DNA of 64,000 nucleotides from a virus. This document shows positions 27,203 to 28,732 of this stretch, piece by piece. Made by a program: the position numbers and the translations under genes. The notes under the pieces are model-generated. The model saw only the letters and a program-made list of their open reading frames with translations. It was not told where the DNA came from and made no database searches. The stretch spans positions 1-64,000 of the IMG/VR virus record IMGVR_UViG_3300049847_000198; one strand, written 5' to 3'. Each line of letters opens with the position of its first letter. The first letter of the stretch is position 1.

Positions 27203-27362
27203 TTGATTCCGTTTTTGGTTGTGGTACAATCACGCCGCAACCGACAAGTCGAATCCAAGTCTCTAAAATCACGGCCACTCTCCCTGCTTGTTGATTCGCT
27301 GTCGGTTGCACTTCAGCGGCTATCGCTTCTTGGGGAGTGGTCTTTTTTTATTGGAGTGTTGC
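27203..27362 (+). promoter_or_regulatory. promoter and attenuator-like structured leader of recA
   Basis: TTGATT-16-TACAAT; crossing helices GCAACCGAC/GTCGGTTGC and GGCCACTCTCC/GGGGAGTGGTC followed by a T run. Confidence 0.6.
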
Positions 27363-28193
27363 ATGAAGAAGAAAAAGTCAGAGCAAGAAGAAGTTGACGA
27401 CATTGCGGCAGCGATTAACAAGAAGTTCGGAGACGGGACAGTTATCAATCTATCCGATTACAAGCAGGAATACGAAGGAGTTCCAACTCCGTCCACTCTC
27501 TTGAACGAAGCGATTGGGGGCAAAGGGTTTCCTCGCGGCAGGATCATTGAATTGATCGGTGCCGAGAGCAGCAGCAAGACGACAATGGCGTTGCAGACGA
27601 TTGGACTTGCTCAGTCTCGCGGAGAACGCTGCGCCTACATCGACGCTGAACACGCCTTGGACTTGGCATGGGCGACCAAGCTCGGCGTGAATCTTTCTAC
27701 GCTTTCTTTCAATCAACCTGGATGGGGAGAGCAGGCGTTACAGATCGCCGAGGCGTTCATAAAGTCTAAGCGATACTCGATTGTGGTGGTTGATTCAGTG
27801 GCCGCTCTGACTCCGAAGGTCGAACTGGAAGGGGACGCCGGGGATCAGCACGTTGGGCTTCAAGCCCGCATGATGGGCCAAGCCATGCGGCGTCTCACGG
27901 GAGTTATCAGCGAGAGCAAAACATGCGTCATTTTCATTAACCAGATGCGAGACACAATCGGCAAGTTCGGATACGGACCAAAGACGACTACTCCTGGTGG
28001 ACGCGCATTGAAGTTCTACGCCAGCGTTCGCGTTGAACTCTCTCGTATATCGACCATTAAAAAGGGAACTCTCGCTTCAGGGATCGAGGTGAAGGCGAAG
28101 GTCATCAAGAACAAGATGGCTGCTCCTTTCAAGGAAGTGCATTACAACCTGATGTACGACCGAGGAATCGTGGACCCCGACAAAAAAGCGTGA
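27363..28193 (+). CDS. recA: RecA recombinase, C-terminally truncated, variant P-loop
   Basis: GFPRGRIIEL, GAESSSKTT, YIDAEHALD, VVDSVAAL, VGLQARMM, IFINQ, TPGGRALKFYASVR, KNK.A.PF. Confidence 0.95.
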   Translation: MKKKKSEQEEVDDIAAAINKKFGDGTVINLSDYKQEYEGVPTPSTLLNEAIGGKGFPRGRIIELIGAESSSKTTMALQTIGLAQSRGERCAYIDAEHALDLAWATKLGVNLSTLSFNQPGWGEQALQIAEAFIKSKRYSIVVVDSVAALTPKVELEGDAGDQHVGLQARMMGQAMRRLTGVISESKTCVIFINQMRDTIGKFGYGPKTTTPGGRALKFYASVRVELSRISTIKKGTLASGIEVKAKVIKNKMAAPFKEVHYNLMYDRGIVDPDKKA

Positions 28194-28330
28194 TACAATT
28201 GGGACGCGACCTGCTACGAAGTGTCCCGATTTCAAACCTGACCCCGTTCTGGCCATTTCGTCGCGCAGGTCGCACTCCGCGTAGAAGGAACCATCAAGAA
28301 CGGGGTCTTTTTGTTTTTTTGGAGCACGCC
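28194..28330 (+). promoter_or_regulatory. promoter -10 and attenuator-like leader paralogous to the recA leader
   Basis: TGATACAAT; helices GCGACCTGC/GCAGGTCGC and GACCCCGTTCT/AGAACGGGGTC followed by a T run. Confidence 0.6.
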
Positions 28331-28732
28331 ATGACTAGACGGTGGTTCGCTATAGAAAACATCCTTCCGGCCGGAATGGGGCACGGAAAGGTTTACTTCA
28401 TTGCTACAGAATGTATGAGGTATTGCAAAGTCGGATGGTCAAGGAATCCCTATTCGCGTCTTGAACAGATCAAGGTGTGCTCTCCATTCAAAATCAACCT
28501 AATAGCCACCATTGACGATCCAGAGAGAACGCAGGAACTCTACTACCATAGGCTCTTCGCCAAGGAGCGAATGAACGGCGAGTGGTTCTCTATCACTGGA
28601 AGACTGAGAAGTTTCCTGGACTCATACGCCGAGTTGTTCAGTTCAGAAGAAATGTATGACAGATGCGTCTCGGAGATGCAGGATCGCCTTGAGGAGGAAC
28701 GGGCAGCGGCGGATTCCTGTATACCATTTTAG
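28331..28732 (+). CDS. T5orf172/MUG113 GIY-YIG-like protein
   Basis: VYFI...KVGWSRNP..RL..I..E...H..F...R..GEWF. Confidence 0.8.
   Translation: MTRRWFAIENILPAGMGHGKVYFIATECMRYCKVGWSRNPYSRLEQIKVCSPFKINLIATIDDPERTQELYYHRLFAKERMNGEWFSITGRLRSFLDSYAELFSSEEMYDRCVSEMQDRLEEERAAADSCIPF

Follow-up and report, generated by a model that had tools for sequence, protein, structure and literature searches.

The window analysed here comprises the first 64 kb (64,000 nucleotides, nt) of the IMG/VR virus record IMGVR_UViG_3300049847_000198, a single linear sequence of 112,081 base pairs (bp) with a CheckV completeness estimate of 79%. On its plus strand, a run of genes and intergenic leaders consists of a 50-amino-acid (aa) open reading frame (ORF) at 27040-27192, leader 1, a recA-like gene, leader 2, a T5orf172/MUG113-domain gene and a ParB-N-like gene. 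The two leaders, each of about 110 bases and placed one before recA and one before the T5orf172 gene, are the subject of this analysis.

Two leaders of one design

Both leaders (copy 1 and copy 2 below) contain the same succession of elements, namely TGnTACAAT, 6 nt, four segments designated A, B, A' and B', a U-tract, and TTGGAG-N6-ATG. The whole genome has exactly two copies of this design. The elements and the genes that they precede are as follows.

27203-27230 (+): copy 1 promoter-like site found by promoter scan, with TTGATT, a 16-nt spacer and a TG-extended -10 element, TGGTACAAT, at 27222-27230
G27237 (+): copy 1 predicted start site, 7 bases past the last base of the -10 hexamer and placed by spacing only
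27237-27245 (+): copy 1 A, GCAACCGAC
27273-27283 (+): copy 1 B, GGCCACTCTCC
27301-27309 (+): copy 1 A', GTCGGTTGC, followed by ACTTC
27332-27342 (+): copy 1 B', GGGGAGTGGTC, followed by T7 at 27343-49
27351-27365 (+): recA ribosome-binding site TTGGAG (27351-27356), 6 nt and ATG (27363)
27363-28193 (+): RecA-like recombinase gene, 276 aa (Pfam RecA, 3.7e-95)
28171-28199 (+): copy 2 promoter-like site found by promoter scan, with TGGACC, a 17-nt spacer and a TG-extended -10 element, TGATACAAT, at 28191-28199
G28206 (+): copy 2 predicted start site, likewise 7 bases past the last base of the -10 hexamer and placed by spacing only
28206-28214 (+): copy 2 A
28240-28250 (+): copy 2 B
28265-28273 (+): copy 2 A', followed by ACTCC
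28297-28307 (+): copy 2 B'
28308-28320 (+): copy 2 U-tract, T5GT7
28319-28333 (+): T5orf172 ribosome-binding site TTGGAG (28319-28324), 6 nt and ATG (28331)
28331-28732 (+): T5orf172/MUG113-domain gene, 133 aa (Pfam PF13455 and PF10544; PHROGs)

A preliminary description of this DNA had named these elements and placed the leaders between a promoter-like site and a gene, with a terminator-like stem and a U-tract. All of this was confirmed, apart from a one-base shift of A' and B' in copy 1. The motif TGNTACAAT occurs three times in the window, against 0.74 occurrences expected. In copy 2 the extended -10 element takes its TG and its spacer base from the recA stop codon TGA (28191-93), so that the end of recA and promoter 2 overlap. 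Neither leader contains an ATG, which makes a leader-peptide mechanism unlikely. A coding extension through leader 2, from a GTG at 28190 in a frame continuous with the T5orf172 gene, was also considered and rejected. It has no ribosome-binding site, and it is unlikely because P0123, a relative of the T5orf172 protein with 82% identity, starts at the same methionine as that at 28331.

Two further observations concern the leaders themselves. The motif ACUYC directly after A' (27310-27314 and 28274-28278) is kept in both copies and no helix explains it; it could pair with the ribosome-binding site over 6 bp in copy 1 (CACUUC/GGAGUG), and only as CUCC/GGAG in copy 2. Leader 1 also contains, at 27246-27259, a 14-mer (AAGTCGAATCCAAG) identical to one inside a gene at 1140-1153. 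This is a direct repeat, not a complementary one, and about 0.1 such occurrences would be expected by chance.

Helices and folding of the leader RNAs

A repeat search found A and A' to be 100% complementary, over 10 and 9 nt in the two copies, and B and B' of copy 2 to be 100% complementary over 11 nt, while the B/B' helix of copy 1 has two G-U pairs. Around these segments each leader can form three helices: H0, which straddles the promoter and was absent from the preliminary description; P1, built on A/A'; and the terminator hairpin T, built on B/B'.

27215-27244 (+): H0 of copy 1, 27215-27225 with 27234-27244, 11 bp including 3 G-U (-15.9 kcal/mol, z = -4.5, 0/200 shuffles as stable)
27237-27309 (+): P1 of copy 1, A/A' with P1b (27250-55/27293-98) and P1c (27256-60/27286-90) (-25.4 kcal/mol, z = -5.3)
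27273-27349 (+): T of copy 1, with B/B' as its base, inner stems in 27290-27301 and 27314-27327, A' apical and U7 at 27343-49 (-28.9 kcal/mol, z = -3.1)
28197-28231 (+): H0 of copy 2, 28197-28207 with 28221-28231, 11 bp including 2 G-U (-15.4 kcal/mol, z = -4.3, 0/200 shuffles as stable)
28206-28273 (+): P1 of copy 2, A/A' with P1b (28216-23/28254-61) and B in the apical loop (-29.1 kcal/mol, z = -4.8)
28240-28320 (+): T of copy 2, with B/B' as its base (11 Watson-Crick pairs), inner stems and A' near the top (-31.2 kcal/mol, z = -4.1)

P1 is a long, irregular 5' hairpin of roughly 20 bp, with A/A' at its base and B in an apical loop of 25-30 nt. In copy 1, A/A' extends into CGAAUC/GAUUCG and CAAGU/GCUUG and the loop that holds B is 25 nt long; in copy 2 the extension is ACGAAGUG/CAUUUCGU. 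When A is unavailable, the interval between B and B' folds into the inner stems to give a single long hairpin, T, and the conserved GGUYGCACU then lies close to the apex. The arms of B/B' are 46-48 nt apart, an interval that is filled by the inner stems in the T fold and left unfilled in the P1 fold. In both copies an 11-bp stem with 7 G-C pairs directly abuts T7 or T5GT7, which is the arrangement of an intrinsic terminator. None of H0, P1 and T includes the ribosome-binding site TTGGAG, which is located 3' to B' and the U-tract. In copy 1, H0 has its 5' arm ahead of the predicted start and ties up the first 8 nt of A; in copy 2 it takes the first 2 nt of A plus the end of the P1b 5' strand. 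The G-U pairs in H0, P1b and B/B' indicate that these structures are specific to the plus-strand RNA and are not features of the DNA.

These overlaps alter one earlier claim. A/A' and B/B' had been described as mutually exclusive or pseudoknotted helices, yet they have no nucleotides in common and do not exclude each other directly. The exclusion comes instead from the complete hairpin P1, which competes for the upper half of T: in both copies the inner stems of T draw on nucleotides that also form the 3' half of P1. H0 in turn overlaps A or P1b.

All six substructures were far more stable than those of dinucleotide shuffles (z from -3.1 to -5.3, with 0/200 shuffles as good). The combination of an 11-bp stem abutting a T-run with a crossing, perfect 9-bp helix was found at 2 loci in the 112-kb genome and at none in 60 first-order Markov shuffles. 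With weaker thresholds (9 bp and 8 bp), chance yields approximately 0.4 loci per genome, and it is therefore helix strength that makes the two loci significant. Genome-wide, both B/B' stems rank in the top three terminator-like stems by strength, and a terminator scan of the genome found no other terminator between the upstream genes, recA and the T5orf172 gene. Canonical short-loop terminators are very few in the genome as a whole (sites at 61256 (+), 14464 (-) and 34180 (+)), and the clearest of them have 4-nt loops, one on an 11-bp stem near 61.25 kb and one on a 9-bp stem that follows the major head gene.

MAFFT gave no in-register alignment of the two copies, which were aligned structurally by means of a single-sequence covariance model. 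Among the 26 pairs of P1, P1b and B/B', 15 are identical between the copies, two differ on one side and nine carry two-sided compensatory changes, with none broken. Compensatory change in the absence of broken pairs supports selection on pairing, and it upholds the suggestion that two paralogous copies covary within one genome. The unpaired segments, by comparison, share 40-55% identity, differ in length and contain indels, and it is the base of P1 that holds the conserved nucleotides. Riboswitches conserve their loops and junctions, and the poor conservation of these parts here argues against a ligand pocket or riboswitch. The cis-regulatory RNA switch of the preliminary description survives as a structured leader; its pattern of conservation is the opposite of that in a ligand-binding riboswitch, and switching as such is suggested by the folding models described below.

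A search of 27100-28450 against Rfam 15 at E ≤ 10 returned only chance-level matches, to isrD (16 bits against a 37-bit threshold) and 5.8S rRNA, and none to a T-box or riboswitch family. This agrees with the earlier view of the leaders as an undescribed RNA. The sole match at the Rfam gathering score in the window was a tRNA at 55112-55183, and ARAGORN found no tRNA-like element in the leaders. The pair of structured leader RNAs is real, statistically supported and uncatalogued.

Base-pair probabilities were computed for RNA beginning at the predicted start sites and for RNA extended upstream, in a folding ensemble of nested structures only, which cannot represent a pseudoknot of P1 with B/B'. 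In start-site RNA, A/A' formed with a probability of 0.99 in copy 1 and 0.93 in copy 2, and B/B' with a probability of 0.00 and 0.06. The addition of native upstream RNA, at least 20 nt in copy 1 or at least 6 nt in copy 2, flipped the fold and raised the probability of B/B' to 0.85 and 0.96. Shuffled upstream sequence flipped copy 1 in only 12% of trials. Constrained folds gave the same direction: in copy 1, P1 was favoured in local RNA by 4.3-4.9 kcal/mol and H0 with T in read-through RNA by 8-9 kcal/mol, and in copy 2 the corresponding margins were 1.7-2.1 and 1.6-1.8 kcal/mol.

Phage context and searches for relatives

The portal and major head proteins of the record match phage families (PHROGs among the searches). 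Among cellular proteins, the RecA of the phage is nearest to planctomycete RecAs, with 55-59% identity. Its two closest relatives are P0004 (84% identity) and P0005 (69%), and their N-termini resemble that of the phage protein. The phage RecA (276 aa) is without the C-terminal domain PF21096, which is present in nearly all of the 350-370-aa cellular matches; its two closest relatives are equally short, at 276 and 269 aa. The T5orf172 domain is kin to GIY-YIG nucleases, as in homing-endonuclease-like proteins. Relative to the product of 28331-28732, P0123 has some 50 inserted aa, of charged and coiled-coil-like character, immediately ahead of the common C-terminal SCIPF motif. P0004, P0005 and P0123 are proteins from short Logan/ENA contigs and were the only close relatives obtained.

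Wider searches did not extend the comparison. No close relative was found among isolated phages, nor in IMG/VR when the portal and a scaffold-like protein were used as queries. RecA relatives reached at most 54% identity in IMG/VR, where none had the motif or the design upstream of recA, and at most 57% in GTDB. The pattern AAAAAGACC-N18-32-GRAGTGCRACC matched 8 loci in IMG/VR and 95 stretches in JGI metagenomes, all of them chance or coding matches without A and B arms. A covariance model built from the two copies (R2) was searched against 151 genomes from the phylum of one "Planctomycetia" metagenome-assembled genome and gave chance-level matches only (lowest E = 0.03 per genome). At 1-3 Mb the genomes of this set are small, and the true host group may be a different one.

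Two ORFs upstream of leader 1, the gene at 26275-26832 encodes two helix-turn-helix domains (HTH_28/HTH_23) and has weak similarity to sigma-70 region 4, making its product a candidate transcription regulator of the leader region. A CsrA homologue is encoded at 58447-58635 (-), with a score of 34.1 bits, over the Pfam cut-off. Searches of the phage for a Q-type antiterminator and for a NusG paralogue found neither. A crude gene call puts the coding fraction of the genome at 93%. A type III toxin-antitoxin system was considered for the locus and rejected, given that 27150-28400 contains no tandem repeats, that the downstream genes encode RecA and a T5orf172 protein, and that PADLOC returned weak matches only.

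Proposed mechanism, rival readings and known systems

We tentatively favour, with slightly less than even confidence, a reading in which each leader would act as a ligand-independent three-helix attenuator, with H0 as anti-antiterminator, P1 as antiterminator and T as terminator, and with the origin of the transcript as its input. The promoters, the start sites, termination and the blocking of termination by P1 are all things that we infer from the sequence and its predicted folds. RNA arriving from upstream genes would carry the 5' arm of H0, which would form first and occupy A; with A occupied, the middle of the leader would zip into the long hairpin T next to the U-tract and transcription would stop. 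As the predicted start is the first G of A in both copies, transcripts from the local TGnTACAAT promoter would lack the H0 5' arm, and their 5' end would be free to build P1 (A/A' and P1b). P1 would take away the upper half of the terminator and leave B and B' 46-48 nt apart. A terminator disabled or weakened in this way would allow the recA or T5orf172 gene to be transcribed. The early region would thereby be split into units, from the upstream operon to the first terminator, from the first promoter through recA to the second terminator, and from the second promoter through the T5orf172 gene onwards, and the same 110 nt would serve both to end one mRNA and to begin its successor. In a more specific version, which we rate as less likely, the U-proximal stem would remain untouched by P1 and B would be locked in a closed loop, from which the 11-bp B/B' helix could not wind while polymerase holds the 3' end; all incoming transcription would still be stopped by the element.

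A number of points weigh against this attenuator. The promoters and start sites are predictions. Comparative support is limited to two paralogues within one genome, and the two H0 helices are analogous and not positionally homologous. Copy 2 is marginally bistable, with margins of only about 2 kcal/mol, and shuffled upstream sequence flipped its fold in 59% of trials. Until B' has been transcribed, P1 has an advantage of 2-4.5 kcal/mol over H0, in read-through RNA as well, so that the outcome would hang on kinetics. A pseudoknot of P1 with B/B' is sterically possible and, by estimate, thermodynamically competitive, and local transcripts might therefore still terminate. Lastly, the model leaves the conserved ACUYC after A' unexplained.

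That motif features in a reading in which the attenuator responds to a factor. A small molecule or an RNA-binding protein, such as the phage CsrA or a host factor, would shift the balance between P1 and T or block B/B', and recA and the nuclease-like gene would be co-regulated. One leader design common to two genes would suit such a system, as would conservation of the P1 base and the flanking ACUYC where the rest has diverged. The phage does encode a CsrA, and GGA motifs are present in each leader at the ribosome-binding site and 18-36 nt upstream, but their positions are not equivalent between the copies. The loops and junctions, where riboswitch cores reside, are poorly conserved and unequal in length, no Rfam family was matched, the antiterminator and NusG-type proteins sought in the phage were not found, and H0 would be superfluous. 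We consider a factor-responsive switch unlikely.

The competitive pseudoknot invites a second alternative, that the short RNA is itself the product: a stable, pseudoknotted RNA of about 106-113 nt in which P1 and B/B' form together, with a function of its own and with the downstream genes expressed via leak-through only. Transcription from the first base of A to a U-tract directly after B' would give an RNA with both termini paired, and P1 and B/B' roughly summed, less 7-10 kcal/mol for the pseudoknot, come out no less stable than either nested fold. However, complementary 10-12-mers elsewhere in the genome occur near chance expectation, with no excess of targets in trans, and B is wholly different between the copies, so that two such RNAs would have no common target. 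recA would also be left without an efficient route of expression and H0 without a role. On balance we judge this product improbable.

Equally improbable, in our estimation, is that the leaders combine independent and ordinary structures, with B/B' as the terminator of the preceding unit, P1 as a 5' stabiliser of the next mRNA, and their interleaving a result of tight packing. mRNAs are stabilised both by 5'-terminal hairpins and by 3' terminator hairpins, and the high coding density of the genome fits such packing. Against this, a promoter upstream of a constitutive strong terminator would be futile, and in both copies P1 overlaps the inner stems of T and H0 competes with P1.

Very improbable, and rejected here, is a self-cleaving ribozyme resembling that of hepatitis delta virus (HDV), in which A<B<A'<B' would correspond to the nested double pseudoknot P1<P2<P1'<P2' with cleavage at the 5' end of A; the topology is compatible, the B-A' spacing of 14-17 nt is similar to P3-L3-P3' and a small hairpin separates A' from B' in copy 1, but the set of defining features (a 7-bp P1 opening with G-U, P1.1, a 3-bp P3 and a catalytic C in J4/2) is lacking, since P1 has 9-10 bp and begins with G-C, P1' is followed by AC and not GG so that there is no P1.1, a 3-bp P3 cannot be drawn in copy 1 and copy 2 has no clear P4, no HDV-type Rfam model matched even at E ≤ 10, and the U-tract and promoter would be unexplained.

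Should the origin-reading attenuator prove correct, a promoter may sit upstream of the terminator of the preceding operon and its transcripts still pass. The 110-nt element would be a one-way valve that insulates phage transcription units, defines stable mRNA ends and saves space, and it could serve as a compact, ligand-free part for synthetic biology. It would also single out recA and a homing-endonuclease-like gene as units that are each insulated on their own, in a phage lineage without cultured relatives. The leaders would then represent a new variant of transcription attenuation.

Classical three-helix attenuators (the trp-type 1:2/2:3/3:4 arrangement, T-box and riboswitch platforms) likewise have three successive overlapping helices and a U-tract just before the gene, and alternative helices with common nucleotides were found in both copies here. 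The leaders differ in having no leader peptide, tRNA site or conserved ligand pocket, and in that segment 1 lies upstream of the local start. Their antiterminator also competes with the top of the terminator and not with the U-proximal stem. No defined sensing input (leader peptide, tRNA, protein or ligand) was identified, and transcript origin is the input that we infer in its place.

In two other systems the 5' end or the origin of the transcript matters. Meng, Turnbough and Switzer reportedly described in 2004 that, in the Bacillus subtilis pyrG leader, a poly-G 5' extension made by reiterative transcription at low cytidine triphosphate pairs with the 5' strand of the terminator. There, as proposed here, termination is suppressed when the very start of the transcript pairs with the terminator hairpin, whereas the 5' end of the present leaders is templated and would pair with the apical part. 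In lambda sib/tI retroregulation, N-modified polymerase reads through and cleavage by RNase III follows. The fate of the RNA at the terminator is again set by the originating promoter, but lambda has no alternative 5' pairing.

Phage T4 provides parallels to a nuclease gene under such control. At the start of the selfish nuclease gene mobE, a partial Rho-independent terminator gives 30-50% termination and so tunes the transcript level of that gene; unlike the leaders described here, this terminator lies within the coding region and has a simple 9-bp stem and a 4-nt loop, mobE lacks a promoter of its own, and there is no 5'-end interaction (PMC2790892). In the promoter-in-hairpin cases of the T4 type (I-TevI, I-TevII, I-TevIII, segB, Aeh1 mobE and genes e and soc), the inhibitory RNA structure is present only on transcripts from upstream promoters, since the local promoter lies inside it (PMC2988022). 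The likeness lies in a structure that depends on the origin of the transcript, local transcripts being without one arm (PMC2988022), and in the frequent service of this arrangement to homing-endonuclease genes, a class related to the T5orf172 gene. The T4 hairpin hides the ribosome-binding site and acts on translation, whereas the present leaders have an intrinsic terminator and a putative antiterminator with the ribosome-binding site outside the helices. The site is thus not sequestered on long transcripts, and only the origin-dependent logic is common to both. If the proposed mechanism is right, the idea of a promoter inside a regulatory hairpin, as known from T4, would be extended from translation to termination.

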